From: an uncultured Candidatus Saccharibacteria bacterium
Lineage (GTDB): Bacteria; Patescibacteriota; UBA1384; DTJR01
Assembly (NCBI GenBank): GCA_964487045.1
Contig: CAZAOT010000002.1
Span: forward strand, 1 to 51,304
Length of the DNA stretch: 51,304 nt
Direction: 5' to 3'
The notes under the pieces were generated by a model. The model saw only the letters and a list, made by a program, of their open reading frames with translations, searched no databases and was not told the DNA's origin. This document shows, one piece after another, positions 8,127 to 51,092 of this stretch (positions are counted from its first letter, which is position 1; every line of letters begins with the position of its first letter). Made by a program: the position numbers and the translations under genes.

Positions 8127-8132
8127 ACAAAA

Positions 8133-8170: not shown

Positions 8171-8175
8171 ATTGG

Positions 8176-11869: not shown

Positions 11870-11878
11870 AGGAGGAGG

Positions 11879-12073
11879 ATGGACGATCTAAGTGCAAATG
11901 CTCACATTAAGGCCAAAGAACCAAGCGAACTGCTCTCTATTGAAGAATGCAAGAAACAGCTTAAAAAGTATAACTTATCGGACGAGCAGATACTCCAGCT
12001 CAAGAACGGTTTAATTGGAATTGTAGACAGTATTATTAACTCGTATATAAATGAATTCGATCAAACCCGATAA
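11879..12073 (+). CDS. Small (64 aa) helical protein co-transcribed with the recombinase; function unknown
   Basis: Strong SD and ATG at 11879; overlaps the recombinase start. The track's 11828 start falls on the -35 box, so it was rejected. Confidence 0.35.
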   Translation: MDDLSANAHIKAKEPSELLSIEECKKQLKKYNLSDEQILQLKNGLIGIVDSIINSYINEFDQTR

Positions 12074-13706
12074 AGAATACACAAAGGCTGTTATTTACTG
12101 CCGCGTTTCCTCTGAGAAGCAGGTTAAGGAGGGAAACGGCTTAGATAGCCAAGAACATAGGTGCAGGGAATACGCTGCTTCTCTTGGCCTTGAGGTAGTA
12201 AATGTTTTCAGGGATGAAGGCATATCCGGCGGACTTTTTGATCGGCCGGCAATGAAATCGCTAATAAAGTTTTTGGATAATAATTGGCAAAACAAATACT
12301 GTGTCATTTTCGACGACCTCAAGAGATTTGCCAGAGATGTTCAGGTTCACATAAGACTAAAAACAGAACTAAAGGTTCGGGAAGCCAAGCCTTGCTGCTT
12401 AAATTATAATTTCGATGATAGCGCCGAGGGCGAATTTGTCGAGACAATTTTTGCAGCTCAGAATGAGCTTGAGCGCAAGCAAAATCGAAGACAAGTTTGC
12501 CAGAAAATGAAGGCTAGAATGGAGCGTGGATATTGGTGTCTTCAAGCGCCAGTTGGTTACGAGTACAAAAAAGATAAAGAGCATGGCAAGATTATTGTTC
12601 CTATTCCGGAAATTGCCAACATATTGGCGGAAGGACTGAATAAGTTTGCTGATGAACAGCTCGTCAGGCAAGTCGATTTACTTAACTTTTTCCTTTCCAA
12701 GAATTTGCAGGATTTGATGGGGATTAGGCGGCTTAGGTCTGATCATGTAAAGAACATTTTGACCAGGTCTTTGTATACCGGAATCGTTGAGTATCCTGAG
12801 TGGGGTGTAGAGCCGCGCGAAGGATATCACCAAGCCATAATCTCAAAAGATACCTACGAGCGAATACAAGTTCGCCTCAGAAGACCCGAGAGGAAACCAA
12901 GAGAAACAGATAGTTTGGAGTTTCCTTTGCGACGAGTGGTGAATTGTTCAGTCTGCGGTACTAAAATGACCGGTAGCGTCAGTAAAGGCAAAGTTAAATA
13001 TTATCCTCACTATACATGCAACAACAAAGAGTGCACCGCCAATCCGAAAAACATCACCGCTTCCAAAATGGAAGAAGATTATATTGATCTCTTGGATAAA
13101 ATCAAGGTCGAACAAGAGATATTGGAAATCGGCAAAATTGTCGCAACGAGAATATGGAAACAGAAAGTTAAAGATATTGACGCGAATCAAAAGATGAAAG
13201 AATCAGAGAAGAAAGAATTGGAACAAAAGATTTTTGAGTATATCGACTTAGTACCAAAAGCCAAATCAGACGCAGTAAGGACGCACTATGAGGCCAAAAT
13301 TGAGGATTTAGATAAGCGCATCAAAGAGCTGGATGAAAAAGTAGAAAATAAAAAAACGCCTGACTTTTTTGAGGCGCTTAAATTAACAATGAAATTCCTT
13401 GGAACACCGGCCGAAACGTGGGTAAACTCGAATAATCAGCTTAAAATTGTGCTTCACAATATGATATTTGCCGAGAACCCGAGTTATTGCTTAAATACCG
13501 GATTTGGAACACCTAAATTGTCGCTCCCATTCCATATAAAGGACCATATTGACGACGATAATGGTGATTTGGTGGACCCGACAGGATTTGAACCTGCGAC
13601 TTTCTGCATGCCATGCAGACGCTCTACCGCTGAGCTACGGGCCCAAAATGTATTTGATAACTTTGGTCTATATTACCATCTCCAAACCATATTTTCAACC
13701 CGTTAG
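12051..13706 (+). CDS. Large serine recombinase (Rec1)
   Basis: Resolvase-type catalytic N-terminus VIYCRVSSEKQ...DDLKRFARD, recombinase domain, Zn ribbon CSVCGTK...YTCNNKEC and a coiled coil. The last 45 codons run antisense across tRNA-Ala(GGC) and its promoter. Confidence 0.85.
   Translation: MNSIKPDKEYTKAVIYCRVSSEKQVKEGNGLDSQEHRCREYAASLGLEVVNVFRDEGISGGLFDRPAMKSLIKFLDNNWQNKYCVIFDDLKRFARDVQVHIRLKTELKVREAKPCCLNYNFDDSAEGEFVETIFAAQNELERKQNRRQVCQKMKARMERGYWCLQAPVGYEYKKDKEHGKIIVPIPEIANILAEGLNKFADEQLVRQVDLLNFFLSKNLQDLMGIRRLRSDHVKNILTRSLYTGIVEYPEWGVEPREGYHQAIISKDTYERIQVRLRRPERKPRETDSLEFPLRRVVNCSVCGTKMTGSVSKGKVKYYPHYTCNNKECTANPKNITASKMEEDYIDLLDKIKVEQEILEIGKIVATRIWKQKVKDIDANQKMKESEKKELEQKIFEYIDLVPKAKSDAVRTHYEAKIEDLDKRIKELDEKVENKKTPDFFEALKLTMKFLGTPAETWVNSNNQLKIVLHNMIFAENPSYCLNTGFGTPKLSLPFHIKDHIDDDNGDLVDPTGFEPATFCMPCRRSTAELRAQNVFDNFGLYYHLQTIFSTR
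13570..13644 (-). tRNA. tRNA-Ala (anticodon GGC), CCA encoded
   Basis: Hand-folded cloverleaf: GGGCCCG/CGGGTCC acceptor with G3:U70, D-stem GCTC/GAGC, anticodon loop ATGGCAT, T-arm GCAGG-TTCAAAT-CCTGT, ACCA. Confidence 0.9.
13670..13698 (-). promoter_or_regulatory. Promoter of tRNA-Ala(GGC)
   Basis: On the minus strand: TTGAAA, 17 nt, TAATAT, about 26 nt before the tRNA 5' end. Confidence 0.5.
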
Positions 13707-33058: not shown

Positions 33059-34432
33059 ATGAGCCAAGAGACCAAATTAACGAATACTGCACCGTTTCAG
33101 CTACCACAAGAAGTAAATGGGGTGTTTGCCGGGCCAATTCAGCCGCCAGATCCGGAAACGAGATACTGCCTTTACGCTCGCAAATCAAGTGAAGATGACG
33201 AGAGGCAAGCACTTTCGATCGGTTCACAAATTAACGAGATGACCAGGCAAGCAGAAACGCAAAGTTTACAGGTCGTTGAAGTTCGGCAAGAAAGTCATTC
33301 GGCAAAATATTCTGGACAAAGACCCATATTTCAACAGCTGATTGGCGATATCCAAAACGGATTATTTAACGGAATTTTAAGTTGGGCGCCCGACCGATTG
33401 TCGAGAAACGCTGGTGACTTGGGATCTATTGTTGATTTGATGGATCGAGGATTATTGAAAGAAATTCGGACTCATGGGCAAGTTTTTACAAATTCACCTA
33501 ATGATAAGTTCCTGCTGATGATTTTATGTTCACAAGCAAAGCTAGAGAATGATAATCGAGGAATCAATATCAAAAGAGGGATGAGGGCAAAATGCGAAAT
33601 GGGCTTCCGACCCAATATGGCTCCAATTGGATACCTGAATGATAAGTACGGCAATAAAGGTCAGCGAAAGGTTTATCCAGATCCTGATAGAGCACCGATC
33701 ATCAAAGAAGCTTTTGAGAAAGTCGGCTATCACGGTTGTTCTGGTCGTCAGGTCTATCTTTGGCTTAAAGACGAGGTTGCGTTTGTAACTCGAAGCGGAA
33801 AGCCGATGACTTTAAGCACAATTTATCGAACTTTGAGTAATCCCTATTATACCGGAGTATTCGAAGTGCCTGAGGGTAGCGGCAATTGGTATAAAGGGGC
33901 ATATGAACCGATCGTTTCGAAAGAGCTATTTAAAATTGTACAAGAAAAATTAACCGTAGTGCCAAAGAGCATGCCCGGAACCAAACAATTTGATTTTACC
34001 AAGTTATTAAAATGCGGAGAGTGCGGTTCTGGAATCACGGCACAGGAAAAAATTAAGCATTGGGGAAAAAGATATGTTTATTACCACTGTACGAAGTTGA
34101 GAAATTTTGAATGTCCTGAGCGATATACAAACGAAGAAAAATTAGTACAAGAATTTATAAGAATTCTATCGAAGCTGACAATCGATCAGATCAAATCCAA
34201 AAGAGAGATTTATGGCAAATTTGAGCAATTTTGTAAATTCAGATCGGACGTATTGGATTTCGAGCTAAAACCGAACCAAGCAAATTATATTGATCAGACA
34301 CGAATTAACATCGAAAAATTTGTTGAACATATTTTCGAAAAAGGTAATCGCGAAGAGAAGCGGTCGCTAATCGGTTGTCTAAGCGCAAAACTAATTCTGA
34401 AAAATCGAGAAGTTTGTTTGTTAGAACTCTAA
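33059..34432 (+). CDS. Large serine recombinase (Rec2), paralogous to Rec3
   Basis: YCLYARKSSEDDERQALSIGSQ, APDRLSRN, Zn ribbon CGECGSGITA...YYHCTK; blockwise similar to 36986-38590. Confidence 0.85.
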   Translation: MSQETKLTNTAPFQLPQEVNGVFAGPIQPPDPETRYCLYARKSSEDDERQALSIGSQINEMTRQAETQSLQVVEVRQESHSAKYSGQRPIFQQLIGDIQNGLFNGILSWAPDRLSRNAGDLGSIVDLMDRGLLKEIRTHGQVFTNSPNDKFLLMILCSQAKLENDNRGINIKRGMRAKCEMGFRPNMAPIGYLNDKYGNKGQRKVYPDPDRAPIIKEAFEKVGYHGCSGRQVYLWLKDEVAFVTRSGKPMTLSTIYRTLSNPYYTGVFEVPEGSGNWYKGAYEPIVSKELFKIVQEKLTVVPKSMPGTKQFDFTKLLKCGECGSGITAQEKIKHWGKRYVYYHCTKLRNFECPERYTNEEKLVQEFIRILSKLTIDQIKSKREIYGKFEQFCKFRSDVLDFELKPNQANYIDQTRINIEKFVEHIFEKGNREEKRSLIGCLSAKLILKNREVCLLEL

Positions 34433-36184: not shown

Positions 36185-36271
36185 TGGTGGGCGAGGTGGG
36201 AATCGAACCCACAATCCCTTGCGAGAATAAGTTTTTGAGACTTACGCGTATACCAGTTCCGCCACTCGCCC
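36185..36271 (-). tRNA. tRNA-Leu (anticodon CAA), class II, CCA encoded
   Basis: Hand fold: GGGCGAG/CUCGCCC acceptor, anticodon arm UAAGU-CUCAAAA-ACUUA, 14-nt variable arm with GCAA loop, T-arm GUGGG-UUCGAUU-CCCAC, ACCA. Confidence 0.9.
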
Positions 36272-36936: not shown

Positions 36937-36985
36937 CATGAGCTTGTACTTGCCTGCCGGCAGGCAGGGCTCAGCTGGTAGAGCA

Positions 36986-38590
36986 CTACACGCGATCCGT
37001 TAAATATTGGGCTGGTAGTTCAGCTGGTAGAACACTGCATTCGCATTGCAGAGGTAGAGGGTTCGAGTCCCTCCCAGTCCACCATTTTACATTTCGTGCC
37101 AATTCTTCCGCTTCGCTCGAGCCAACGGCTCTTGCTTGCGGTGGCAAATTCGAGAGTAATTCATATTGTTTTTGAAAATTCATAATGAGTTTTCCGCCCA
37201 GCAAAATGCGGTTCGAGCCGGCGGTTTTAAGAAAATTTCTCATAGCGGAGAAATTTTTTGTTTTAACAAAATTTCCAGCTTGGTTGGCGTCAATTATCCA
37301 GTTTTTCAAGAGTTCGAGCCAATGATTTCCTTTTCGTTCAAAATCTCTTAACTTTTCTTCAAACTCGGCTTTTTGCTCAATCAGTTTATTCTTCTTTTCT
37401 TTGTACTCTGAAAGCTCTATCGCTTGGTCTAAGTAAGCGTCAGACAAACGATCAAGCCGAGTTTTGATGGTTGCAATTTTGTTGTTTAGATTTTGAGCGA
37501 AAACAACCGACGAGTGGTATTTATCTTTTTCCCAACCTTGAACTTTTAGCATATACTTTTCTTTCCACTCGTCGGGCAAAGAAACTTTTTGACAGAGATC
37601 TTCAATTTGTTTTGCCAAAACTTCTTCGCAAACAAATTTTCTCTCGGCACAAACTTTGGTTTTGCTTTTATGAGTACAACGGTAGTAAACATATTCTCGG
37701 CCACTTGGCTTGAACTTTCTCTCGGCAGTTATGGCATAACCGCAACTTCCGCATTTGGCAAAACCAAGAAATTGAAGTTCTCTTTCCTTTCGTTTGTGCC
37801 GAGGTTTCGAGTGATCTTTTAGGGCAACTTGTATTTTGTCAAAAGTTTCTTTGGAAATCATTGGCTTATGAGAACCTTGATAAAGTTCTCCGTCATAACT
37901 TATGACGCCGTAATAAAATGGCTTCGATAGTAGTTTTTGAATTGATGACAAAGCCATTTTATGTCCGTCTTTTCCAACCAAGCCAAGAGAAAACATTTTT
38001 GCTTGAATTCCAGTCAGCGAAAACTCGCCGGTAGCAAAAAGCTCCAGCGCTTTCTTAACTAGCGAAAAAGTTTTGGGATTTGGGTCGATAGTTCGAAGTC
38101 TTGGCTCGTTGAAGTAACCGAGTGGAGCTTTTGAAGGCAATTCTCCTCGGCGAAGTTTTTGCCGTATTCCTCGCAAAATGTTTTCTCTTAAATTGTCGGT
38201 GTAATATTTGGCCTGACCAAAGGCAACGCTTAACATGAACTTTCCTTGTGGTGTTGCTTCAAACCAGAAAGTTGGGAATTTTAGCGAGGTGATTTTGCCT
38301 GTATCAACCAAGTAAATTACTCTTCCACCATCAACAGAGTTTCTGGCAAGTCGATCGGGATTCCAAGCTAAAATTCCCGAAGCGTTGCCTTTTTCAAGCT
38401 CTAAAAGCATTTGGTTAAAGATTGGTCGCCCAGGCTCCTTGGCGGTTTTGCTTTCGGTAAACTCACGAACAACAAACAAGTTATTAGTCCTGGCAAAATC
38501 TCTTAGTTCTTGGAGTTGGGCTTCAATAGACAAAATTTGTCGCTCTTCCTCTTCGGAAGATTTACGACAGTAAATGAAATACTTTTCCAT
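36986..38590 (-). CDS. Large serine recombinase (Rec3)
   Basis: YFIYCRKSSEEEERQILSIEAQ, NPDRLARN, Zn ribbon CGSCGYAITA...YYRCTH, coiled coil. The last 32 codons (after WW) are the antisense of the entire tRNA-Ala(CGC) plus 23 nt beyond it. Confidence 0.85.
   Translation of the reverse strand: MEKYFIYCRKSSEEEERQILSIEAQLQELRDFARTNNLFVVREFTESKTAKEPGRPIFNQMLLELEKGNASGILAWNPDRLARNSVDGGRVIYLVDTGKITSLKFPTFWFEATPQGKFMLSVAFGQAKYYTDNLRENILRGIRQKLRRGELPSKAPLGYFNEPRLRTIDPNPKTFSLVKKALELFATGEFSLTGIQAKMFSLGLVGKDGHKMALSSIQKLLSKPFYYGVISYDGELYQGSHKPMISKETFDKIQVALKDHSKPRHKRKERELQFLGFAKCGSCGYAITAERKFKPSGREYVYYRCTHKSKTKVCAERKFVCEEVLAKQIEDLCQKVSLPDEWKEKYMLKVQGWEKDKYHSSVVFAQNLNNKIATIKTRLDRLSDAYLDQAIELSEYKEKKNKLIEQKAEFEEKLRDFERKGNHWLELLKNWIIDANQAGNFVKTKNFSAMRNFLKTAGSNRILLGGKLIMNFQKQYELLSNLPPQARAVGSSEAEELARNVKWWTGRDSNPLPLQCECSVLPAELPAQYLTDRV
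37009..37084 (+). tRNA. tRNA-Ala (anticodon CGC), CCA encoded
   Basis: Hand fold: GGGCTGG/CCAGTCC acceptor with G3:U70, D-stem GTTC/GAAC, anticodon arm CTGCA-TTCGCAT-TGCAG, T-arm GAGGG-TTCGAGT-CCCTC, ACCA. Confidence 0.9.
37079..37214 (+). repeat. Inverted repeat arm A (covers the Rec3 3' coding end)
   Basis: Reverse complement of 38707-38842. The inner ~104-105 nt have 3 mismatches; the outer about 30 nt next to CCACCA are diverged. Confidence 0.85.
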
Positions 38591-38706
38591 TTTTCCCTCC
38601 TTAAATTTTGTCTATAACCAAATGCTTTTATACACCGACAATTTTCTGGAAATTTTGTTACCGCCGGGGCTCTAAAGAATTTCATTCTTTTCTGTGCTTC
38701 GCACAG

Positions 38707-38842
38707 GAACCGCATTTTGCTGGGCGGAAAACTCATTATGAATTTTCAAAAACAATATGAATTACTCTCGAATTTGCCCCCGCAAGCGAGAGCCATTGGC
38801 TCGAGCGAAGCGGAACAAATTAAATTAAATACAATGTGGTGG
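38707..38842 (-). repeat. Inverted repeat arm B (pseudo-copy of the Rec3 3' end upstream of the Rec3 promoter)
   Basis: The + strand reads RILLGGKLIMNFQKQYELLSNLPPQARAIGSSEAE..WW, matching Rec3 residues near the C-terminus. It ends on tggtgg, which is also the first 6 nt of IR-L. Confidence 0.85.
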
Positions 38843-39020
38843 TATGTTTTGAACGAAGCTCGAACTTTTTTCGAAAATGCTGAAATTTAATACTGATGCT
38901 CGCGACCCGCAAAGCGGGTCGCTCGCTTTATTTCCTTTTTTTCAAAATACATTTTTGCGCGGCCGTGGAGGGGTGTGGGGAGGAAACGGCCGCGCTAGCT
39001 TTTTTGGGGCGGGGCGGAAA
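38837..39020 (+). repeat. 184-bp inverted repeat, left arm (IR-L)
   Basis: Reverse complement of 42387-42570 with one mismatch (38844 a vs 42563 c). Contains hairpins at 38902-38922 and 38957-38995, each followed by a T-run. Confidence 0.95.
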
Positions 39021-39100
39021 AAATTAGACACAGATCAAATGCTTATGCTAATTATAGTATGTAGCATTAAAATTAGCAATTAGCTTATACTTGTATTAAA

Positions 39101-39313
39101 ATGAAGAAAGGTATCTTAATAAAATTTGGTGACCGAGTCCGCGAAGAACGCTTGAAACTTGGATTGTCGCAAGAAGAACTTGCTGTTAAAACTGGAGTTC
39201 ACCGAACCTATATTGGCATGATCGAACGAGCCGAGAAAAATATTACCTTGTTAAATATTGAAAAGATAGCAGGGGCTTTAAAAATCACTGTGAACCAACT
39301 ATTTAGAAAATAA
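39101..39313 (+). CDS. XRE-family HTH transcriptional regulator (70 aa)
   Basis: LGLSQEELAVKTGVHRTYIGMIERAEKNITLLNIEKIA. Confidence 0.8.
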   Translation: MKKGILIKFGDRVREERLKLGLSQEELAVKTGVHRTYIGMIERAEKNITLLNIEKIAGALKITVNQLFRK

Positions 39314-39317
39314 TTAT

Positions 39318-42300
39318 ATGGATGAATTTGGAAAATATACTCCAGAGGAAGCTTTCGACGAATCACAGCGTCTTGGAAATTCCACTGGATCTAATAAAAA
39401 TGAATTAGATGAAGCAGAATTTCAATTACTAAATGAATCTCAGCGAGAACTCGCTGATAGAATTATTGAAGACCCAGCTATTTCAATCCCAGAAGTTTAT
39501 TTTGAAAGACAACAAAATCCCGAAGCAGTCAGAAGTGTGCTATCTTTGAATATTGTACAGTCAGCATTACGAAGAGCATTGATTGATTCAATTTTTGACG
39601 GGGATGTCGGGTTAACTGAAAGTCTAATAAAAGAATACGAGTTACCAGAAAGTGTAATTTCTTCTTCTGAGTTGCAAACAAAGATAAAAGACGAAGCAAT
39701 ATTTCTTTTAGGTCATTATGATTTTGGAAAATTCCAGAAATTATTTGATCTATTTGGTTTGCCAGACGCAATTGGTGAATATAATTTAGATTTCAATATA
39801 TTTTTTAGAATAGATCGTCGATTTACTTTCTCTAGTATTTTAGAATTTGGTAGGTTTATCCAACAGCATGAAACATATTTTGGTTGGCTGGAGAATGAGA
39901 AACTTAATGGACGAGAGTCTGAATGGTTATTTGATGAACATGAGTTAGATAGCATCAAACAAAAATACCTTAGACCAGAAGAGGCCCATGTTTTGGTGTT
40001 GCATGGATTTACAGTTTCATCCAATTGGACAGAAACAGGTGGAAAAGATAGCTATGAAGAAGCGTTAAAAGTACTGTCAGCGACGGAATCACTTAAACGC
40101 TGGCAAGAATCGGATGAATTAGTGCAGTTTCTAGAAGTTTTTGATGAGGATGATCAAATAGAACCGACCCATGGGGAAAATGGTGTCCAAGAAAGGCAAA
40201 CCGAAGAAGCGACAACAATATTTGAAAGAGCGTCAAAAAGATTTGGTTACCGGTCAATGTTTCAATTCTGTTTTAGGGATGATGTAGGGATGCATGACAT
40301 GCTTCATGCGTACGATGATATCGAAGACAGTCTGTTCAAGTCCTCTGGACTCAAACCAAGTGAGTTTTTTGGCCAGATACTTTTTCAAGTTAAAATGGAT
40401 TCAGTCAACTACCAAGATGGTGCGAGTTACCACCGGCTTAATACGATCGCACAATCATTCAATCCACAAGAAGCCCAGAAAGTAATAAAAGAATTATCAC
40501 AAATTCCCGAATTTGCCGAAATGTCCGCTTCATACAAGACGGTGGAAGACATTTTTTCATCATGGGCCAGTTTAAAAAAATTCCATAAGCTCCAGACAAT
40601 CCTTGGACAGCAAGATCTACTCAACCAGTTAAAAACTCAGGGACATACGAAACTAATTGATTATATACGCCGGTTGGCTTTTGGCGGATCAAGTGTAAGC
40701 ATCGAGAAAGTACTACAATTTTGGAAAGATCCTAGTGGCTTTTTAAATATCAGCGAACGACATGCAAGAAGAGTTCATGAGTTGAAAAAGCCATCACATT
40801 ATACAGAAATACCTCACCTTGACCTAACTCCCGAAGAACTTCGCGACTCACTGGTTGAAGGAGACCTAGATTCCCTTCAAGTTTTCCACCCATTAGAAAT
40901 AGAATATACCATATCATCTAGTGCTGGAAATTTAAGAGAAAATTTGACAGAAGCATTGGGCAGTCGGGAAGCGGGAATAAAGCCAAGAGCTAAAAATCCA
41001 AAAAAATTGTATTCTGCAGTTAAAAATATTTTAGACCCAGCTGGTATCAGTCTTAAGGATTATCTTCAAGGTCAAGCTGACTTACCATCTGGTATGGAAG
41101 ATCAATTGGGTATTATCTTGAAAGACGATTCTGCAGGGCTTGTGGACCACGTTGAGGTGTATCGAGCAAAGATATATTCCAAAAGCGATCCCGAAAGTGT
41201 TGTTGCTGGAAATGATACTTCATGTTGTATGCCTTTTGGATCAGGAAAAAATAATATTTACACATTCAACCCTATCTGCTCAACGTTTGTGGTCCAGAGA
41301 CAAAACAACAATGGAAGTTGGCGGACGATAGCGCAAAGTATTTTGACAGAAGATGTTGATATTCATGAGAATATACATGAGTTAATGCAACGAATTGACT
41401 TTGCTGATAAAAGTCAATTAAGAGAATTTATTCCTCAGAGCGTATTGGAGCAATCGCCATCTGTGGTTACCGCCGACAATATTGAAGTATCACCTAATTT
41501 TGCTGCTTCCGAACAATCCAGTTTAATATTGGAACAAATATATCGTGATTTCTTTCAAGAATATAGCCGCCGATATTTACAAGGCGAGTCAAATGATGGC
41601 TCTAGAATAATCGTTGGAAAAGGGTATTCAGAAATCATGGGTCATCTACCAGAAGTAAACAATACATTTTTACCACGGACACCAGTTGCATACTCCGACA
41701 ATATAATGCAAACCGCCTATCAGTTAGACTTGTGGGGGGAGCCGAATCCTGTTATGGACTGGAAGGGGCGCATCACAGAGACATACACACCGATAGATCA
41801 GTCATCAGACTCTAGAGTTCTTTCAGATGTTGGTATCCGCGGCTTGTCATTTCTTGGTTTTAGAGACGCTCTGCCTGTTTCGTTCATCGAGGGCAAAGCA
41901 TATGAGGACAACCCAGAGCTTCTTGTATATTTACATAATATGGAAAATGCCTTAATAGCAAAAGACATCAACAACTCCAGAAAGAAACGTTCGAATATGA
42001 GCTTGAAATGGCAAGATTCTACCGGGAAAATTCATGGTTACATTCTTGCGTACGAAGGAGTTAGCGTAAGGGCTGCCGATACAGTTTCTCATCAAGCCCA
42101 AGAACGAATATTATATATTTCCGACCTAGCTTCTGATTCCGAATCGAAATTAGCCGGCGGGTACCTCATCAAAGGTTTTTTCGAACTATATAGAAGGAAT
42201 TATCTCGAGAAGGGTGATTTTATTCCAATTGTTTTTGAGGGTAGAGAGCAAACATCATATTCAATAGTAGCAAAACAAATTAGTAGGATCGCATCAAATC

Positions 42301-42386
42301 TAGGATATGAATGTTCTCTCGAGGAAGGTGAGGCCTATAAACATGGAAATGACATAATGCACCCCGTGGTCCTTCGATTTAAATAA
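39318..42386 (+). CDS. 1022-aa orphan protein, possible GNAT-like C-terminal domain
   Basis: Long uninterrupted ORF 4 nt after the XRE stop. The C-terminal about 170 aa (GYILAYEG...ILYISDLASD...LAGGYLIKGFFELY...IVFEGRE) resembles an acetyltransferase fold. No other motif was recognised. Confidence 0.7.
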   Translation: MDEFGKYTPEEAFDESQRLGNSTGSNKNELDEAEFQLLNESQRELADRIIEDPAISIPEVYFERQQNPEAVRSVLSLNIVQSALRRALIDSIFDGDVGLTESLIKEYELPESVISSSELQTKIKDEAIFLLGHYDFGKFQKLFDLFGLPDAIGEYNLDFNIFFRIDRRFTFSSILEFGRFIQQHETYFGWLENEKLNGRESEWLFDEHELDSIKQKYLRPEEAHVLVLHGFTVSSNWTETGGKDSYEEALKVLSATESLKRWQESDELVQFLEVFDEDDQIEPTHGENGVQERQTEEATTIFERASKRFGYRSMFQFCFRDDVGMHDMLHAYDDIEDSLFKSSGLKPSEFFGQILFQVKMDSVNYQDGASYHRLNTIAQSFNPQEAQKVIKELSQIPEFAEMSASYKTVEDIFSSWASLKKFHKLQTILGQQDLLNQLKTQGHTKLIDYIRRLAFGGSSVSIEKVLQFWKDPSGFLNISERHARRVHELKKPSHYTEIPHLDLTPEELRDSLVEGDLDSLQVFHPLEIEYTISSSAGNLRENLTEALGSREAGIKPRAKNPKKLYSAVKNILDPAGISLKDYLQGQADLPSGMEDQLGIILKDDSAGLVDHVEVYRAKIYSKSDPESVVAGNDTSCCMPFGSGKNNIYTFNPICSTFVVQRQNNNGSWRTIAQSILTEDVDIHENIHELMQRIDFADKSQLREFIPQSVLEQSPSVVTADNIEVSPNFAASEQSSLILEQIYRDFFQEYSRRYLQGESNDGSRIIVGKGYSEIMGHLPEVNNTFLPRTPVAYSDNIMQTAYQLDLWGEPNPVMDWKGRITETYTPIDQSSDSRVLSDVGIRGLSFLGFRDALPVSFIEGKAYEDNPELLVYLHNMENALIAKDINNSRKKRSNMSLKWQDSTGKIHGYILAYEGVSVRAADTVSHQAQERILYISDLASDSESKLAGGYLIKGFFELYRRNYLEKGDFIPIVFEGREQTSYSIVAKQISRIASNLGYECSLEEGEAYKHGNDIMHPVVLRFK

Positions 42387-42570
42387 TTTCCGCCCCGCCC
42401 CAAAAAAGCTAGCGCGGCCGTTTCCTCCCCACACCCCTCCACGGCCGCGCAAAAATGTATTTTGAAAAAAAGGAAATAAAGCGAGCGACCCGCTTTGCGG
42501 GTCGCGAGCATCAGTATTAAATTTCAGCATTTTCGAAAAAAGTTCGAGCTTCGTTCAAAACACACCACCA
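42387..42570 (-). repeat. 184-bp inverted repeat, right arm (IR-R)
   Basis: Starts on the nucleotide after the TAA stop of the 1022-aa ORF and ends in ccacca. Confidence 0.95.
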
Positions 42571-42589
42571 AGTTATTGCCCAATTTAAC

Positions 42590-42637
42590 GGGCTGAACAT
42601 TGCGGAGATGGCAGTTCGATTCTGCCTAGGTCCACCA
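42590..42637 (+). pseudogene. tRNA-Ala 3'-half remnant (anticodon-loop end, T-arm, acceptor with U70, CCA)
   Basis: GGGCTGAA-CATTGCGG-AGAT-GGCAG-TTCGATT-CTGCC-TAGGTCC-ACCA. It lacks the D-arm and the 5' anticodon stem, and parallels positions 37044-37084 of the intact tRNA. Confidence 0.65.
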
Positions 42638-42786
42638 ATTTGTATTTTGTTTAATTTGTTCCGCTTCGCACGGGATCAAACCCAACGATTCGGCTGGTAA
42701 TTCTGTATAAAGGCGAATAAATTGTATATGATTTCTTGAAAAAGAATCTATAAAATCATAATTAGCGATTCGCTAGAAAGGATATA

Positions 42787-43050
42787 ATGAATTTAGTGAT
42801 TGGGATTGTAGCGATTGTTATCGGTTTCCTGCTTAATCAGTGGATATCACATTCATTAAGCAAAGATGCATTATCAAGGCCTATGTTTTTAAACTACCCT
42901 ACAGGCGTACTTATTTCTACGGTCGTCTATATTTCAGTCTATGTCGTTGGATTGTATTTTTTATACAGAATTTCAATTTGGATACCAGTCATACTAGTTT
43001 CTTTGTTTTTATTGATAATAATTTCCAACTTATTGAAAAAATCTAAATAG
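42787..43050 (+). CDS. Small membrane protein (3 TM helices)
   Basis: Hydrophobic 87-aa ORF; no motif. Confidence 0.4.
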   Translation: MNLVIGIVAIVIGFLLNQWISHSLSKDALSRPMFLNYPTGVLISTVVYISVYVVGLYFLYRISIWIPVILVSLFLLIIISNLLKKSK

Positions 43051-43298
43051 AAAACAAATATTAGTTAGTTGTAGAAATAAGATTTTTTGGAGTTTACATG
43101 GGAGAATTATCAAGAAATGAGTGGAAGACTTTTTCCAGTTTTTTCTTGCCAGAATATAATAAGTTGAATAAAACTGGTTATATATTTTTAGATCAAGAAC
43201 CTAAAGTTTATAATTAGGATTGGGATTTTATAGATAATGACAATAATATACTCCCTATTCAACATACTAGAGCTGCAGGTACAGATAATGATGTAAGA

Positions 43299-43898
43299 AT
43301 GGAAATTACTCGTCCAAAGATTTCTGAGCAATTTATTAACGGACTTAAGAAAGAATTAGAATTAAGAGGAGTTAAAAATTGTCATATTTCATTAAATATT
43401 TCTAATCCTCCAAGTGCAAAGGAAGAGGTACGTGAAGCCTCGTATTGGATTTCAGAATGGATCAGAATAAAGTATTTCGACTCAAGCAGAAAAAAAATTT
43501 ACTCATTTGATCAGGAAGAATATGATATTTACATTAAACATTGTTTGAAATGGGTTTCAAGAATTGATTTATTTGAAGATGACGGACTCCATTTTGGATT
43601 TGGTTGGAGCAAATATCCACTAGAGTTAAATTGTGTTTTAGACAGTCCACAAAGATTTGTAAATGCAGTTATGAAAAAAGAAGCTAAAAACTATACAAAC
43701 GCAGATAAACTTGTCCTTGTTCTGGATTTCAGTCCCTTTTCTTTTGACGAAAACGATATCATTAGATTTAGAAAAATAATTAGTGAGTCTAAGACTAAAT
43801 TTAATGCTATTTGGGTTTATCAATTATGGTCTGGCGCTAGAGGTGCATTTGAAATTTATCAAACCCAATCACCTAAAGAACTTACGCTTCGTTCCTAA
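43299..43898 (+). CDS. Hypothetical protein, possibly the 3' part of a TAG-interrupted gene starting at 43098
   Basis: ORF in frame with a 39-codon ORF (ATG 43098), separated by a single TAG at 43215-43217. Confidence 0.45.
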   Translation: MEITRPKISEQFINGLKKELELRGVKNCHISLNISNPPSAKEEVREASYWISEWIRIKYFDSSRKKIYSFDQEEYDIYIKHCLKWVSRIDLFEDDGLHFGFGWSKYPLELNCVLDSPQRFVNAVMKKEAKNYTNADKLVLVLDFSPFSFDENDIIRFRKIISESKTKFNAIWVYQLWSGARGAFEIYQTQSPKELTLRS

Positions 43899-44000
43899 AT
43901 AGTTAAAGGTCACTCACCATTACTTTTTTGCCAGCATAGTAATTTAAAATCCTAAGCTATGGTCTAAAAAATCACAGACTAAAAACTTCGGAAAGATAAG

Positions 44001-45155
44001 TTATGACTCTTCGGGAGTCTTTTTTGATTGGAAAAATTGATAAAGGAAATAAACAAAACTTGCTACGAGCATTAAAGAGAGCGTCACAAGAGTGCTATGA
44101 TCAAAATTTGCAAACATTTCGTGCCAAATTAGATATAAGTTTAAGAAATAAATTCCGCTGATAACAAAATAGATTGCGAAGTTTAGTTTAGACTTTATTG
44201 CTATTGGAATAAGCAATACTAGAGTTGGTAGTAGATGGCGTTCGTGGACTCTAGTTAAAAACATGCAGACTGCAAAATTTATAAGTCCAGCTGCTGCTAG
44301 TGTGTTATCAAAATTGATTCGTTTTCTGAGGATATAAATTATAAGCAGTATAAAGAAAGCACTGATAATCAAACCCATGTTTTGATAGGAGGTAATTCCA
44401 CCTAAGCTATCAGGTACCTTGTTTAGCCCAAGCATATACCAAAAATTCAGGGCGTTTACTGAAGCAAAATGAGATTGTCCTTGCGACGAGTCTAGCAGAA
44501 ATGAAATTGATTGCTTGAAAAATCCCGAGCCATAGTAGGGTATAAAAAATAATGAATACAACAAAAGTCCACCTACTAAGATGCCTATAGTCTTGTTTAG
44601 TTTCAATTTTGAATAAACAAGCAATATATATAGGGGTAAAAATATTATTGCCGACTGCTTAACCAAGAGTGCTCCCAAGAAAGCTAAGGCGGAATAGATA
44701 GGGTATTTTGTACGCATTAGAATAAAAATACTTAAGAAGATCAAGGCAGCTACGAGTCCTTCTGTTTGGCCCCAAAGCACACTATTATAAAAGATTCCTG
44801 GATTAAGTAGATAAACTATAAAGAAAACCGGGGAGATAATTATCGAAAGTGACATCATAAGTGACTCGACCACTATAGTAGGAAGTTTATTGAAAGTAGT
44901 CCTAGCTTCATAATTTCCAGGAAATAATCTTTGCGATGACTTATCTAGATAGTAATATAGTCCAGTGATTAGAGGTGGGTAATTAGCAGCTGAAAAAGGA
45001 TAGAAATCTCTCTCGTAAAAACCTGAAAATCCAAAGTTTTTTATCGAGTCTGTCCAGTTAAGATTATTGTTAAGATCACGGTTGTAGCTCAAGGTTGATA
45101 TTGAAACTCTAGCAATCAATATTACAAAAAAAATTAACAGCCAATACTTTTTCAT
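44001..45155 (-). CDS. GT-C-type membrane glycosyltransferase-like protein (GT39/DUF2029-like)
   Basis: About 11 TM helices with a short acidic first loop; assigned by overall architecture only. Confidence 0.4.
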   Translation of the reverse strand: MKKYWLLIFFVILIARVSISTLSYNRDLNNNLNWTDSIKNFGFSGFYERDFYPFSAANYPPLITGLYYYLDKSSQRLFPGNYEARTTFNKLPTIVVESLMMSLSIIISPVFFIVYLLNPGIFYNSVLWGQTEGLVAALIFLSIFILMRTKYPIYSALAFLGALLVKQSAIIFLPLYILLVYSKLKLNKTIGILVGGLLLYSLFFIPYYGSGFFKQSISFLLDSSQGQSHFASVNALNFWYMLGLNKVPDSLGGITSYQNMGLIISAFFILLIIYILRKRINFDNTLAAAGLINFAVCMFLTRVHERHLLPTLVLLIPIAIKSKLNFAIYFVISGIYFLNLYLIWHEMFANFDHSTLVTLSLMLVASFVYFLYQFFQSKKTPEES

Positions 45156-45235
45156 AGCTAAATTTTAGCATTAATTAGAAAAACCTGTTAAATAACAGAT
45201 TAATTTGATAAAATACTCTTAATTAAGAGGAGTAT

Positions 45236-46705
45236 ATGGAAAATAATAACATTAAAGAATCCGAAAGCAGAGAAGATAAGCTTAAAAGGATTAGAGATCT
45301 GGGTATAAACCCTTATCCTGCAAAAACTGATCGAAATTTAGATATTAAATCAGCCAAAAAGACTAAGGATAAAACTGTTATTATTGCTGGCAAAATCGCT
45401 TCAGTTAGGTCGCATGGCAAATCCACATTTATGGATATTCAGGATGAAAGTGATCTAATGCAAGCTTATTTCAAGTTTGATAATTTGGGCGAAGACAAAT
45501 ACGAATTTTTAAAAAATATTGAAATAGGCGACTACATAGAGGTAAAAGGAGAGAATTTTGTTACCAAAACTGGTGAAATAACGATTGCCGCCAAAGAATA
45601 TAAGCTTCTAAATAAGACACTCCTACCCGTACCTGACAAGTGGTATGGACTTAAAGACACTGAGCTTCGATACCGCAAGAGATTCCTAGATATGATAATG
45701 AATCCTGATGTCAAAAGGAATATCGAAATTAGGTCCAAGATAGTCGAGGAACTTCGTAGCTTTATGAAGAAAAACGGCTTTATTGAAGTTGAAACTCCGA
45801 TACTTCAGGCAATTCCAGGAGGAGCTTCGGCAAAGCCTTTTGTAACACAATATAATATTCTTAAGCAGGACATGTATCTTAGAATAGCTCCGGAGCTTTT
45901 TCTTAAGAGACTTGTTGTTGGAGGATTTGAAAAGGTATATGAGATAGGTAGACAATTCCGAAACGAGGGACTATCGCATATGCACAATCCAGAATTTACC
46001 TCAATTGAGTTCTATTGGGCTTATCAAGACTATGAGGGTCTGATGAGGTTCACAGAGGAGATGATGAGTACAGTTATTAAAGAAGTTTGCGGCAAAACTA
46101 CAATTACATATCAAGGAAATGAGCTTAATTTTGCTCCACCATATCCACGCATCACCTTTGATGCTTTGATCGAAAAGGATTGTGGCATAAATATATTCCA
46201 ATACCCTGAATTCGAAGATCTAAAAAAAGAAGTAATCAAAAAGGGTATAGACTTAAACTTCAAAGAGATAAAAGTATGGCCAAAGCTTGTAGATGAGCTT
46301 TATAAAAAAGTTTCAAGGCCAAAGATAGTTGAACCAATATTTGTAATCGATCATCCTCTAGTTCTTGTTCCTTTGGCTAAAGCCAAAGAAGATGAGCCAC
46401 TCAAATCCCAAACGTTTCAGTTGGTCTGCGCGGGTGGTATCGAACTGATGAAGGCTTATTCAGAACAAAATGACCCAATCGAACAAGAAGAAAGATTCCG
46501 CGAGCAAGTTAAGCTTTCTAAGGCAGGCTGGGATGAATCTAATATGATGGACGAAAACTTCGTCGAAGCTTTGAAATATGGCTTACCGCCAACGGCTGGA
46601 TGGGGGATGGGAATTGAAAGATTTGCGATGCTTCTTACTGATCAATACTCGATCAAAGAAGTTATCGCCTTTCCTACACTAAAGAATATTTCTGGCAAAA
46701 AATGA
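45236..46705 (+). CDS. lysS: Lysine--tRNA ligase, class II
   Basis: OB-fold N-terminus, class II motifs (FRNEG, GGIELMKAYSEQNDP, GWGMGIERF). Confidence 0.9.
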   Translation: MENNNIKESESREDKLKRIRDLGINPYPAKTDRNLDIKSAKKTKDKTVIIAGKIASVRSHGKSTFMDIQDESDLMQAYFKFDNLGEDKYEFLKNIEIGDYIEVKGENFVTKTGEITIAAKEYKLLNKTLLPVPDKWYGLKDTELRYRKRFLDMIMNPDVKRNIEIRSKIVEELRSFMKKNGFIEVETPILQAIPGGASAKPFVTQYNILKQDMYLRIAPELFLKRLVVGGFEKVYEIGRQFRNEGLSHMHNPEFTSIEFYWAYQDYEGLMRFTEEMMSTVIKEVCGKTTITYQGNELNFAPPYPRITFDALIEKDCGINIFQYPEFEDLKKEVIKKGIDLNFKEIKVWPKLVDELYKKVSRPKIVEPIFVIDHPLVLVPLAKAKEDEPLKSQTFQLVCAGGIELMKAYSEQNDPIEQEERFREQVKLSKAGWDESNMMDENFVEALKYGLPPTAGWGMGIERFAMLLTDQYSIKEVIAFPTLKNISGKK

Positions 46706-47181
46706 TCTATTATCTAGTCGGAGCGTCAATTCTAATGCTCGTTGGGCTGGTAGGGATTATTATTCCAGCTGTTCCAGGAATACCTTTTATGGCGATTATT
46801 GCCCTCCTATACCAAATTTTTACAAAAGGCCTGTCGACCACAACACTCATTGTTCTTGCTGTAATAACACTGCTATCAATTATTATTGATTATTTCTCAG
46901 GAATATTAGGAGCGAGGATCTCTGGAGCTAGCGCAAAATCGATGCTTCTTGGAATACTTGGAATGCTAATCGGTATTGGTTTTATTCCACCAATTGGTGC
47001 GATTATTGGATTATTTATTGGAATCTTGGCAGGGGAGTTAATATTCAAAAAAGATGCAAAAAAAGCAATTAAAGCTGCATCTGGAAGTGCGATTTCAGTA
47101 ATTATTGGGATGATTTTAAACATAACTCTTGCTTTAGCATTTTTGATTATTTTTGTAATTAGCGGAATTTCAGGATTATGA
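46702..47181 (+). CDS. DUF456-family membrane protein
   Basis: GLVGIIIPAVPGIPFM start and 4 TM helices; ATGA overlaps on both sides. Confidence 0.55.
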   Translation: MIYYLVGASILMLVGLVGIIIPAVPGIPFMAIIALLYQIFTKGLSTTTLIVLAVITLLSIIIDYFSGILGARISGASAKSMLLGILGMLIGIGFIPPIGAIIGLFIGILAGELIFKKDAKKAIKAASGSAISVIIGMILNITLALAFLIIFVISGISGL

Positions 47182-47813
47182 TTTTTGAGAAAGGTATTTA
47201 TAATATCTACAAACCTAAGGGGCCAAGCTCTTACGACATTATTCGTCAGATAAAACGAGATGCTGTGGATAAAAAAATTGGCCATGGTGGAACTCTCGAT
47301 CCACTTGCTAGTGGAGTATTGGTAGTTGCGATTGGGCGAGAATCCACTAAGCAACTTGATAGCGTAGTTAAAGACGAAAAAGAATACAAAGCCACTATCA
47401 AACTTGGCCAAACTAGCACTACCCAGGATGAAGAAGGAAATAAAACAGAAATCAGGGTAGACCATCATCCTACTTTGGAGGAGATTAAAAATGTTTTAAT
47501 TAGTTTTATAGGTAAGATTAAGCAAACTCCGCCAATATATTCAGCTATGAAAGTTAATGGAAAAAGAGCCTATCAACTAGCCAGGAAAGGCGAAACGCCA
47601 GAGATCAAGGAGCGTGAGATCACAATTTACAAAATCGATTTAATTAATTATTCCTGGCCAATTTTGGAAATAAGAGTTTCTTGTTCGAGCGGTACATATA
47701 TTAGAACTTTAGCAAATGATATCGGAAGCAAACTTAAAACTGGCGGATATCTAGCGGACCTAATTAGAACTAAAGTAGGCAATTTTAATATCAAGGACAG
47801 TGTTAAGCTTTAA
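47178..47813 (+). CDS. truB: tRNA pseudouridine(55) synthase (short form)
   Basis: GHGGTLDPLASGVLVV catalytic Asp motif, YSAMKVNGKRAY. Confidence 0.85.
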   Translation: MIFEKGIYNIYKPKGPSSYDIIRQIKRDAVDKKIGHGGTLDPLASGVLVVAIGRESTKQLDSVVKDEKEYKATIKLGQTSTTQDEEGNKTEIRVDHHPTLEEIKNVLISFIGKIKQTPPIYSAMKVNGKRAYQLARKGETPEIKEREITIYKIDLINYSWPILEIRVSCSSGTYIRTLANDIGSKLKTGGYLADLIRTKVGNFNIKDSVKL

Positions 47814-47862
47814 TTATTCTATAGCACTAACCGTTGAACCTGTTTTTTGATAAAATAAAGCT

Positions 47863-49188
47863 ATGCATCAAGAAGCGACCGAGATTGTCAGAAAGCTTCA
47901 GGAAAACAAATTTGAAGCTTATTTTGCTGGTGGATCGGTTAGGGACATATTACTCGGGCAAGACCCTAAAGATATCGATATCGCCACGAGTGCTACTCCA
48001 GACCAAATTCAAAGACTATTTCCAGATAATATACCTATCGGTAAACAATTTGGAGTAATTTTAGTAAAAGGTAAAAATAATCAATTTGAAGTAGCCACGT
48101 TTAGAGAAGAGGGACCATATCTTGATAAGCGCCGCCCGAGCTATGTTAAATTCACAAGTGCCGAAAACGACGCTAAACGTCGCGACTTCACTATCAATGG
48201 CATGTTCTATGATCCGATAACTAACAAGATTATAGACTACGTCGGCGGCCAGGAAGACATAAAAAAGAAAACGATTCGGTTTATCGGTGATGCAGTTGAT
48301 CGAATAAAAGAGGACAATCTACGTTTAATTCGAGCCATTAGATTCAAGGTTACGCTTAATTTTCAATACTCTGATGAAACTTTTTCTCTGATAACTAATA
48401 ATTCAAGTTTGATAAAAAATGTCTCACCAGAAAGGCTAAGGGACGAATTAAATAAGATTTTACAAAGTGGAAGACGGCATATCGGACTGACTGAGCTTTC
48501 TCAGAGTAAAATTATTGATTACATAATTCCTGAAATTAATGACCTGAAAGGAGTTCCGCAACCGATTGAATATCATCATGAGGGCGATGTTTTCACTCAT
48601 ACTTATCTCGCAATTAAATCCCTTCCAAGCGATGCTCCACTTCACCTTGTCTGGGCAGTACTCCTTCATGATATTGGCAAACCGCCGACACTTATCAAAG
48701 AAGATAAGAGGATAATTTTCCACAACCACGCAGAAGTTTCTGCCGAAATGGCCTCGAAGATTCTACAAAGACTTAAATTTTCTAGTTTTGAAATTAAAAC
48801 TATATATTTCCTAATTGATAGCCATATGAAAATAGCATTAATACCTAAGATGCGACCGACTAAACAGATGGCTTTTTTGCTTGATCCGCGATTTCCAGAT
48901 TTAATCAAGCTTTGCGAAGCAGATTCCAGAGGAACCTACCCAGTAAATCTAGCTTTAGTTGAAAAATTAAAAACTGAGCTTGAGCAGGCGAAAATTGAGA
49001 AAGCTAAAATCGAGCTTGCAAAAAAATCCACCAAACTATTTACAGGTGACAATCTTATAGAATTAGGGTATAATCCATCAAAGGACTTTAAGGAAATTCT
49101 AGATGAAGTGAATGATCAAATAATTGCTGGAAATATCAAATCACTTGAGCAGGCGAAGTCATTCGTCTTAAAAAATTTCAAATCATGA
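47863..49188 (+). CDS. cca: CCA-adding enzyme / poly(A) polymerase-family nucleotidyltransferase with HD domain
   Basis: GGSVRD...DIDIAT, RRDFTING, HHEGDVFTH...LLHDIGK. Confidence 0.8.
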   Translation: MHQEATEIVRKLQENKFEAYFAGGSVRDILLGQDPKDIDIATSATPDQIQRLFPDNIPIGKQFGVILVKGKNNQFEVATFREEGPYLDKRRPSYVKFTSAENDAKRRDFTINGMFYDPITNKIIDYVGGQEDIKKKTIRFIGDAVDRIKEDNLRLIRAIRFKVTLNFQYSDETFSLITNNSSLIKNVSPERLRDELNKILQSGRRHIGLTELSQSKIIDYIIPEINDLKGVPQPIEYHHEGDVFTHTYLAIKSLPSDAPLHLVWAVLLHDIGKPPTLIKEDKRIIFHNHAEVSAEMASKILQRLKFSSFEIKTIYFLIDSHMKIALIPKMRPTKQMAFLLDPRFPDLIKLCEADSRGTYPVNLALVEKLKTELEQAKIEKAKIELAKKSTKLFTGDNLIELGYNPSKDFKEILDEVNDQIIAGNIKSLEQAKSFVLKNFKS

Positions 49189-50060: not shown

Positions 50061-50112
50061 GCAGACGCTCTCCAGCCTTGAATCAACAGGACAAATAGGT
50101 TAAAATATCGAA

Positions 50113-51021: not shown

Positions 51022-51092
51022 CACTAACGATTGACATTTTTAAAAAAATCTATAGAATTTCGTCTTAGTACGTTAACATCAACCTCGAGGAG

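Follow-up and report, generated by a model that had tools for sequence, protein, structure and literature searches.

In myxophage Mx8, attP lies within the integrase gene, and integration creates a new 3' end of that gene and with it a new C-terminus (PMC6070905; Tojo 1996, as cited in PMC4383910); the Mx8 and SSV integrases have together been described as proteins that 'extend across attP' (PMC4383910). Among large serine recombinases (LSRs), the zinc-ribbon motif of the A118 integrase occupies bp 11–19 of attB and bp 16–24 of attP, a shift of 5 bp (Rutherford et al., PMC3783163). Here we analyze a 51,304-nt stretch of DNA from an uncultured Candidatus Saccharibacteria bacterium (contig CAZAOT010000002.1, hereafter the window), in which the gene of a 534-residue LSR, Rec3, reads antisense through an entire tRNA-Ala(CGC) gene. 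The insertion of large DNA segments relies mainly on serine integrases, which, to our knowledge, textbooks describe as avoiding tRNA genes.

On the sequence evidence, Rec3 is probably the integrase of a 5.5-kb element located at the extreme 3' end of tRNA-Ala(CGC), with an attachment (att) site that overlaps the end of its own gene. ARAGORN called three tRNA genes in the whole window, tRNA-Ala(ggc), tRNA-Leu(caa) and tRNA-Ala(cgc), and the last of these was also called by Rfam, in agreement with the earlier note on this DNA, which had been made from the letters and reading frames alone. The Rec3 open reading frame (ORF) is the sole long one at tRNA-Ala(CGC), the remaining two antisense frames through the tRNA holding stops, and its translation ends ...NVKWWTGRDSNPLPLQCECSVLPAELPAQYLTDRV before the stop codon (also written ...ARNVKWWTGRDSNPLPLQCECSVLPAELPAQYLTDRV). 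The last 32 codons, 503–534 (96 nt, 36989–37084), are indeed antisense, being the reverse complement of the tRNA and of 20 nt of its 5' flank; the 23-nt flank given earlier comprises these 20 coding nucleotides plus the stop codon. Residues 1–504 are encoded by the element, and residues 505–534 by the antisense strand of the host tRNA and its 5' flank.

Three junctions delimit the element (Table 1): S1, where the tRNA meets the 3' end of rec; S2, an internal attP-like junction upstream of rec; and S3, where the far end of the cargo meets the flank, which starts AGTTATTGCCC... and is also recorded as AGTTATTGCC.... In the window, CCACCA is the sole sequence that S1, S2 and S3 share, and this very short core, devoid of a long segment of identity, is what is expected of an LSR. 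The same three-junction layout is present in all 12 other loci with enough sequence, and together these junctions set the core at W503–W504, inside the recombinase coding region, as the earlier note had proposed. The rec gene is flanked by inverted repeat I2 (136 nt, 90% identity between the P1 and P2 arms) and the cargo by inverted repeat I1 (189 nt, 98% identity between the B and B' arms); across Rec3-type loci, these repeats measure 124–136 nt and 170–450 nt, respectively. The B arm holds a mimic of the tRNA T-loop, GCTCGAAC, encodes an alternative tail, YVLNEARTFFENAEI followed by a stop, and carries two terminator-like hairpins. In the 12 other loci, the B arms of S3 and S2 agree up to CCAC in eight cases, CCACCA in three and CCA in one, and no difference separates the P arms of S1 and S2 from CCACCA outward. 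From these boundaries, we infer that the exchange takes place within C71-C72-A73 of the tRNA, which corresponds to codon W504. Residues through W503 are always element-encoded, and the sequence after W504 is set by whichever DNA has been joined. As a standard integration product, S1 would be attL, S3 would be attR, and the element would span positions 37085–42564, with tRNA-Ala(CGC) as the B-type (attB-derived) half-site of attL, its T-loop GTTCGAG lying 19 nt from the core. The organism's only other contig, L003, ends inside a P arm.

The association between Rec3-type genes and tRNA 3' ends is seen throughout the family. A protein search with Rec3 returned 5,943 relatives at E < 1e-10; the exact Rec3 protein was not on record in the database searched. 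Tails were classified in the best 120 relatives (63–92% identical), which come from Parcubacteria, Berkelbacteria, Shapirobacteria and similar candidate phyla and have in common a C-terminal N-x-x-W-W motif, whose second tryptophan, W504, is invariant in alignment A2. An antisense tRNA or transfer-messenger RNA (tmRNA) tail (WWT-RGDSNPRPP-CK-GALP-EL-AQ) follows this motif in 58 of the 120, and a stop at most two residues past WW in another 23, as where a tRNA ending CTAGGTCCACCA yields WWT and a stop. The rest of the classified tails are conserved and unrelated to tRNA: WWC-LLDEIRTFFEQNPEDFAD and its variants in 22 relatives, and WWCYFSICANLF in five. Both tail classes (58+23 versus 22+5) therefore exist in homologues, which bears out the earlier proposal that the recombinase C-terminus differs between states, although the part swapped on integration may be just one residue. 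A one-genome-per-species collection was also scanned, and at least 577 of 600 candidate stretches encode Rec3 relatives, nearly all of them in Patescibacteria. Our locus survey consisted of 80 loci, two others and the window, with 61 complete ORFs among them. In 56 of the 61, an antisense tRNA or tmRNA 3' end falls exactly on the TGGTGG codons of the WW pair (the reverse complement of CCACCA), at an offset of 0, or of 2 if the gene has no encoded CCA. The targets are tRNA-Ala (46 loci: tgc 21, ggc 16, cgc 9), tmRNA (five), tRNA-Val (two) and tRNA-Ser, -Gln and -Asn (one each). Two Rec3-family copies can sit at different tRNA-Ala genes inside a single metagenome-assembled genome. This survey of homologues, proposed in the earlier note, shows the tRNA/WW coupling to be a property of the family, far beyond chance at that level. 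The overlap between ORF and tRNA has a median of 39 nt, amounts to 12 nt or less in 17 of 57 loci and crosses the whole gene in 11 of 57; no ORF ends ahead of the core (0 cases), and the tail past WW in the integrated form is unconserved, ranging from 1 to >45 residues. The reach of the ORF into the tRNA is arbitrary: the full antisense passage highlighted at the outset is real for Rec3 and for the second recombinase, Rec1, but incidental, the crossover lying at the extreme 3' end of the tRNA. The earlier note had named, as a sign against its proposal, a conserved protein that ends well upstream of an unconserved read-through tail; the tail is unconserved, but conservation reaches N-x-x-W-W, inside the tRNA 3' end. 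The closest relative of Rec3 on a long contig (91% identity; L001, 2007–2349) sits at a tmRNA 3' end and has the same upstream inverted repeat.

The two arms that meet the core differ in the placement of a common motif. In 52 of 54 tRNA arms, the T-loop motif TCGAAC lies at nt 13–18 from the core (GAAC at nt 15–18). The mimic in the B arm, GT[CT][AC]GAAC, has its GAAC at nt 20–23 in 28 of 32 B arms (25 exactly, three one nucleotide further out). Taking the CC of the core as the central dinucleotide would place the motifs at bp 10–19 of the tRNA arm and bp 15–24 of the B arm. This +5-bp offset matches the published attB/attP geometry and identifies the tRNA arm as a half-site of the B type and the B arm as one of the P type. 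The alternative tail owes its conserved 'RT' to translation of the T-loop mimic. The Rec1 family has an offset of +5 bp as well, with TGGAAC at nt 24–29 of its P' arm and TTGAAC at nt 19–24 of the tRNA. Dyad symmetry between P arm and B arm is weak (GAAT at about bp 22–25) and tentative.

The Rec3 protein has the domain set of a serine recombinase, which sets it apart from the tyrosine recombinases. A resolvase-type N-terminal catalytic domain (PF00239, 1.8e-19), with R9 and S11 among the residues that do not vary in alignment A2, is followed by a recombinase domain (PF07508) and a zinc ribbon (PF13408). By homology to structures in the Protein Data Bank, Rec3 aligns with SPbeta SprA (9dxh) over residues 7–418 and with the A118 integrase (4kis) over residues 193–415. 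AlphaFold2 predicts the recombinase domain, the zinc ribbon, a long coiled coil (340–420) and an extra C-terminal domain (423–480) confidently, but the catalytic domain poorly, the underlying alignment being shallow (30 sequences). Residues 506–534 are predicted to be disordered, with a per-residue confidence score (pLDDT) of 29–36. All folded domains thus fall within contiguous residues 1–504, and the splitting of int known from SSV-type integrases does not occur here. Small invertases of the Hin/Gin/Pin type are proteins of ~190 residues with a C-terminal helix-turn-helix (HTH), whereas Rec3 is a 534-residue LSR despite its inverted sites; the 'Pin-like invertase' labels that some source annotations give to its relatives rest on the catalytic domain alone.

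The other end of the housekeeping block in the window offers an independent case. Rec1, a 551-residue LSR with the same three Pfam domains (PF00239 at 2.4e-24), is 24% identical to Rec3, with the identity confined to the canonical domains, and belongs to a different family. Its ORF likewise reads through a tRNA gene, tRNA-Ala(GGC), as the earlier note had stated, and its core TGGTGGAC (13570–13577, + strand) encodes the residues L-V-D. The Rec1 element lies to the left of Rec1 (window 1–13569), runs off the left end of the window and is of conjugative type, encoding a VirB4/TraG-like ATPase, two type IV secretion system pilins, PrgI, a TrwB-type coupling protein, a Replic_Relax relaxase-like protein and an M23 peptidase. 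The best 120 Rec1 relatives end ...GFGTPKLSLPF-IK-(variable)-(L/M)V(D/E), where (L/M)V(D/E) is encoded by xTG-GTG-GAx, that is, the same TGGTGGA core in another reading frame than in Rec3. Antisense-tRNA tails (frame +1, PTGFEPATSS...) are found in 81 of these 120, and at least six of the 120 have a conserved native tail of ~30 residues (D.DQKFWNTF..LEW.P.L), whose W-N is encoded by TGGAAC. The native-tail genes stand on contigs from three samples, with element genes on both sides and no tRNA; the surrounding genes encode a coupling protein, a TIR-domain protein, a methylase and a helicase. These copies are unintegrated or in the attP state. The repeat analysis of the window revealed no long inverted repeats flanking Rec1.

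In the Rec3 family, alternative states were sought in metagenomes with a 20-nt probe for the tRNA/P-arm junction of one lineage, which matched >120 contigs; the 77 that extend 200 nt or more past the core were classified. In about 22 of these 77 readable junctions, rec reads into the tRNA (state A), and in six the tRNA adjoins rec on its upstream side (state B). The single P-arm lineage occurs beside many different tRNA bodies. Contig L097 (12,034 nt), whose rec has a B-arm tail, contains a 3,955-nt direct repeat (period 8,026 nt) as well as inverted repeats of 448 nt, a pattern consistent with a circular element of 8,026 nt. As a separate observation, in L098 (11370–13514) rec runs at its 3' end into a P' arm of a second type (tail WWCYSSICANLF), followed in order by a second cargo with inverted repeats, TGGTGG and tRNA-Ala(cgc), forming an array of two cargo modules; in L150, L162 and L214, the whole rec cassette is cut to 9 nt between two inverted cores. 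Viral contigs in IMG/VR essentially lack the Rec3 family (one match, at 43% identity), and a phage origin was dropped in view of this near absence.

The repeats around rec and cargo also suit a different emphasis, namely that Rec3 is mainly a DNA invertase or shuffler (Flp/FRT- or shufflon-like) that flips rec and cargo, with the tail change resulting from inversion and the tRNA serving as an old anchor. We regard this as unlikely. Both rec and cargo do lie between inverted repeats that end at cores whose orientation alternates, an arrangement kept in relatives as distant as 49% identity, and assemblies contain orientation isomers: the six state-B contigs, L056, where the cargo is inverted, and L219/L220, where rec leads to the far cargo end, against L223, where it leads to the HTH end. 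The two-module array in L098 fits shuffling as well. Yet Rec3 has the domain set of an integrase-type LSR, coiled coil included, the tRNA and B arms are offset from each other by the 5 bp that distinguish attB from attP, the S1 and S3 cores are direct, as integration leaves them, one lineage is present at many different tRNAs, and orientation is strongly biased (56:0 for rec in genomes; 14:1 for cargo). It also counts against a primary invertase that LSRs are not known to pair two attP sites (PMC3783163). Inversion or cassette shuffling would be compatible with integration as an added activity, to which we assign a low probability. We hold in equally low regard the wider proposal that Rec3 elements form a modular cassette platform at tRNA-Ala, in which the LSR flips its own gene and the defence cargo and stacks modules through non-canonical inverted pairings (attP-like with attP-like or attL-like), its own C-terminus, native or tRNA-antisense, and head-on tRNA transcription acting as a switch that locks it in one state.

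Two further readings would deprive the overlap, or the alternative tails, of meaning. The overlap could be meaningless if the real protein ended upstream, with the att site outside the functional gene and the ORF merely drifting into a hot-spot tRNA. An unconserved, predicted-disordered tail of 1 to >45 residues after WW would be expected on that account, and a stop-free antisense frame across a 76-nt tRNA is not rare; but conservation runs through N-x-x-W-W to the invariant W504, tRNA 3' ends fall on the WW codons to the base in 56 of 61 ORFs with none stopping ahead of the core, and a second LSR family has the same coupling in another reading frame, so that drift is hardly credible. It is less far-fetched, though still very unlikely, that the B-arm tails are all assembly fold-backs at the inverted repeat, with no free attP form, and that the elements are immobile relics. 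Most B-arm-tail proteins come from contigs of 1.6–2.1 kb or from contig ends, contig L002 duplicates 72 nt of its own upstream sequence and then breaks off, 72 nt past the stop codon, and the assembly graph of an integrated element holds every edge needed for pseudo-circular walks. However, L219 (a MEGAHIT k=141 unitig) and the independent contig L220 connect unique rec sequence, by way of a 119-nt P arm, with the B arm and beyond it with the far cargo end, the cargo of L097 is repeated directly rather than inverted, near-identical P arms occur at many different tRNAs, and the Rec1 family, which has no such repeats, still shows native-tail forms in three samples.

Several points weigh against Rec3 acting as an integrase in the way described. 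About 50 of the 77 readable junctions are scars, in which the tRNA is followed by 11–110 nt of P arm and no rec; since these are deletion scars, element loss is often imprecise deletion rather than excision. Inverted repeats of 120–450 nt make short-read assemblies ambiguous: some B-arm-tail ORFs, such as that of L002, are probably fold-back artefacts, and paths like that of L097 could in principle be chimeric walks through an assembly graph. The empty attB allele of the window, which the earlier note had suggested looking for, had 0 matches in the metagenome contigs searched, and the putative attR is accordingly placed by the repeat boundaries. Quasi-symmetry of attB was not seen either: the flank-side arms of 13 S3 sites have no common motif, so that across 13 loci the flank-side half-sites of the inferred attB show no conservation, which is unusual for an LSR. 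No candidate recombination directionality factor was recognised in the cargo genes. Finally, because the integrated-form tail is disordered and varies from 1 to >45 residues in length, a function of its own is unlikely.

With integration by Rec3 as the preferred explanation, the following scheme can be drawn. The P half-site would be the last ~25 bp of the rec coding sequence and the P' half-site the B arm just downstream, and Rec3 would catalyze crossover at a dinucleotide within the second Trp codon, whose TGG is the reverse complement of C71-C72-A73 in the tRNA; the exact dinucleotide is our inference. On the chromosome, the element would target tRNA or tmRNA genes that end in GGTCCA(CCA), at their T-arm and acceptor 3' strand. 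Recognition of the T-loop DNA GGTTCGAAT in attB, and of its mimic 5 bp further out in attP, probably falls to the zinc-ribbon domain. The tRNA would stay intact on integration, with A73 and CCA supplied by the element, several native tRNA genes evidently having no encoded CCA. Integration would also fuse the rec ORF to antisense tRNA, replacing a short conserved native tail by an arbitrary disordered one, and set rec transcription head-on against the tRNA gene. Loss of the native tail, clearest in the Rec1 family, and head-on tRNA transcription could together down-regulate the integrase after insertion. The same scheme, in a different frame, would apply to the conjugative-type element of Rec1 at tRNA-Ala(GGC).

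A second, complete attP-like site of the S2 type, inverted and directly upstream of rec, is retained in nearly all Rec3-type loci, including those of relatives as distant as 49% identity. Canonical LSR rules provide no partner for S2 and do not account for the double inverted attP. The inner end of the repeat coincides with the conserved GSNR codons; in the upstream copy, one or two short hairpins interrupt the homology, which is regained beyond them. At 42597..42700(+), right of S3, lies a decayed older attL, made up of the 3' part of another tRNA-Ala (to 42637, with CCACCA at its end) and a remnant of a rec 3' end; similar decayed tRNA/rec scars are common in metagenomes. The core-proximal 30 nt of P2 (38807–38836) are closer to this remnant (42638–42672) than to P1, which makes S2 a mosaic of two element lineages. 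P1 and P2 arms are identical in the close relatives L001 and L004.

Other roles for these sequences were considered. A crossover in the anticodon loop, prompted by the tRNA fragment at 42597–42637, was rejected, since B-arm identity ends at CCAC/CCA in all loci and the fragment belongs to the older decayed attL. Insertion-sequence-like excision of the 1.76-kb rec cassette was rejected on the grounds that the cores flanking rec are inverted (CCACCA versus TGGTGG), so that an LSR would invert the cassette and not excise it, and that there is no palindromic dinucleotide. A small ORF in the upstream repeat copy (MNFQ...ENAEI, then a stop) was rejected as a gene because its start codon is unconserved in relatives. 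Two further ideas were set aside: an RNA role for the repeat by pairing of the 5' untranslated region with the 3' end, as the promoter is likely inside the cassette and the mRNA would carry one arm; and a duplex attP formed, as in CTX phage, from folded single-stranded DNA, as double-strand cleavage would break the chromosome.

Table 1. Positions of the recombinase genes, tRNA genes, junctions, repeat arms and cargo genes in the 51,304-nt window.
Feature	Position	Strand	Basis
Rec1, 551-residue LSR	12051..13706	+	Same three Pfam domains as Rec3; PF00239 at 2.4e-24
tRNA-Ala(GGC)	13570..13644	-	ARAGORN
tRNA-Leu(caa)	36185-36271	-	ARAGORN
tRNA-Ala(CGC)	37009-37084	+	ARAGORN; Rfam tRNA, 67.9 bits at 37009-37081
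Rec3, 534-residue LSR	36986..38590	-	Pfam Resolvase, Recombinase, Zn_ribbon_recom
S1 (putative attL) core CCACCA, tRNA positions 71-76, Rec3 codons W503-W504	37079..37084	.	S1/S2/S3 comparison
P1 arm, last ~43 Rec3 codons (GSNR...NVKW), element half of putative attL	37085..37214	-	Inverted repeat I2, alignment
Hairpin ctgtgcttcgcacag, conserved, short, inner end of upstream repeat copy	38692..38706	.	
P2 arm, inverted copy of rec 3' end, upstream of rec start codon	38707..38836	+	
S2 core TGGTGG, internal attP-like (P2 arm/B arm), inverted versus S1 and S3	38837..38842	.	
B arm (putative P' half-site), left copy of cargo-flanking inverted repeat	38843..39025	+	
70-residue HTH_3 protein, C-protein-like, first cargo gene, divergent from rec	39101..39313	+	Pfam; PADLOC Control_protein, 1e-20
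1022-residue cargo protein	39318..42386	+	No Pfam or PADLOC match
B' arm, inverted B-arm copy	42382..42564	-	Inverted repeat I1
S3 (putative attR) core CCACCA, direct relative to S1; joins B' arm to flank	42565..42570	.	

The cargo of the Rec3 element comprises two genes, and the 1022-residue protein, encoded directly behind the HTH protein that resembles restriction-modification control (C) proteins, is a candidate new restriction or defence enzyme. A control-protein-like HTH protein of 64–74 residues adjoins S2, divergent from rec, in 14 of 19 cargos. The variable genes that accompany it encode N6/N4 and C5 DNA methylases, DpnII, NgoPII and OLD/AAA_15 nucleases, as well as a KAP NTPase, a SWI2/SNF2 helicase and a phosphotransferase. 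By their gene content, Rec3-type elements are miniature restriction-modification or defence islands of 3.5–8 kb.

Between the two recombinase loci, a housekeeping block (13.8–36.9 kb; phosphoglycerate mutases, Sua5 and others) separates the two tRNA-Ala genes, whose 3' ends both face outward to the recombinase genes. Within it are two tandem paralogues of cofactor-independent phosphoglycerate mutase (510 and 520 residues, 13793–16884(-)) and a third LSR, Rec2 (457 residues, 33059–34432(+)), which is 37% identical to Rec3 over residues 3–345 and has no C-terminal extension. The 3' end of the Rec2 gene has no tRNA and converges on an F420-ligase-like gene, a layout repeated in L003. Just 5' of tRNA-Ala(cgc), a D-arm-like tRNA fragment, GGGCTCAGCTGGTAGAGCAC (36967–36986), holds the Rec3 stop codon and is preceded by the palindrome tgcctgccggcaggca (36950–36988 region). 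The leader and start of this tRNA (36998–37013) form an inverted match of 14/16 nt with the flank to the right of S3 (42578–42592), which may be a trace of an old inversion or chance. Beyond the element, positions 43000–51304 have a G+C content of 0.30–0.39, against 0.38–0.46 elsewhere, and two ORFs tested there had no Pfam match; this stretch may be another island.

Taken together, the data indicate that two large, independent LSR families in Patescibacteria, spanning hundreds of species, target the near-universal 3' end of tRNA-Ala and tmRNA genes; both appear to read T-loop DNA and to keep the att site inside the integrase ORF. They amount to a natural experiment, replicated many times over, on the 5-bp attP/attB offset model, may provide genome engineering with a landing site of broad host range, and open a route to mapping small defence islands and conjugative-type elements in an uncultured phylum. 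The double inverted attP architecture may point to a new kind of LSR site pairing. Our full-text literature search, which did not cover subscription journals, turned up no report that places LSRs at tRNA 3' ends or attP within an LSR gene, and the novelty suspected in the earlier note is upheld to that extent.

Rec3 resembles the phage-type LSRs (A118/LI, Bxb1, phiC31 and SPbeta SprA) in its domain set, very short core and 5-bp motif shift (PMC3783163). Unlike them, it targets tRNA and tmRNA 3' ends, has an extra C-terminal domain of ~85 residues, shows an unconserved flank-side attB half-site and carries a second, inverted attP. The inferred Rec3 circle, with two inverted repeats that each hold a recombinase site and separate a recombinase segment from a second segment, recalls the yeast 2-micron circle; Flp, however, is a tyrosine recombinase that acts on identical sites and amplifies a replicating plasmid, whereas the Rec3 element has no evident replication module. 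The analogues named in the earlier note share part of the arrangement. In mycobacteriophage integration-dependent immunity, attP also lies inside a gene and integration alters the C-terminus of a phage protein, but the gene is that of the repressor, the integrase is a tyrosine recombinase and the effect is exerted through a degradation tag. SSV-type archaeal integrases also have attP in int and a tRNA target; they too are tyrosine recombinases, and their int is split into two non-functional parts, whereas Rec3 would swap the residues after W504. Mx8 comes nearer than either and, by analogy, appears to be the closest mechanistic counterpart. It integrates at a tRNA gene (Asp), its attP lies inside int, and integration alters the C-terminus, converting IntP to IntX, just as the att core of Rec3 falls on codons 503–504 of a 534-codon ORF with alternative tails in homologues. 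Mx8 Int differs in being a tyrosine recombinase with a long common core, and the functional change from IntP to IntX has been demonstrated for Mx8, whereas Rec3 is known from sequence; Rec3 would then represent the serine-recombinase counterpart of IntP/IntX self-modification.

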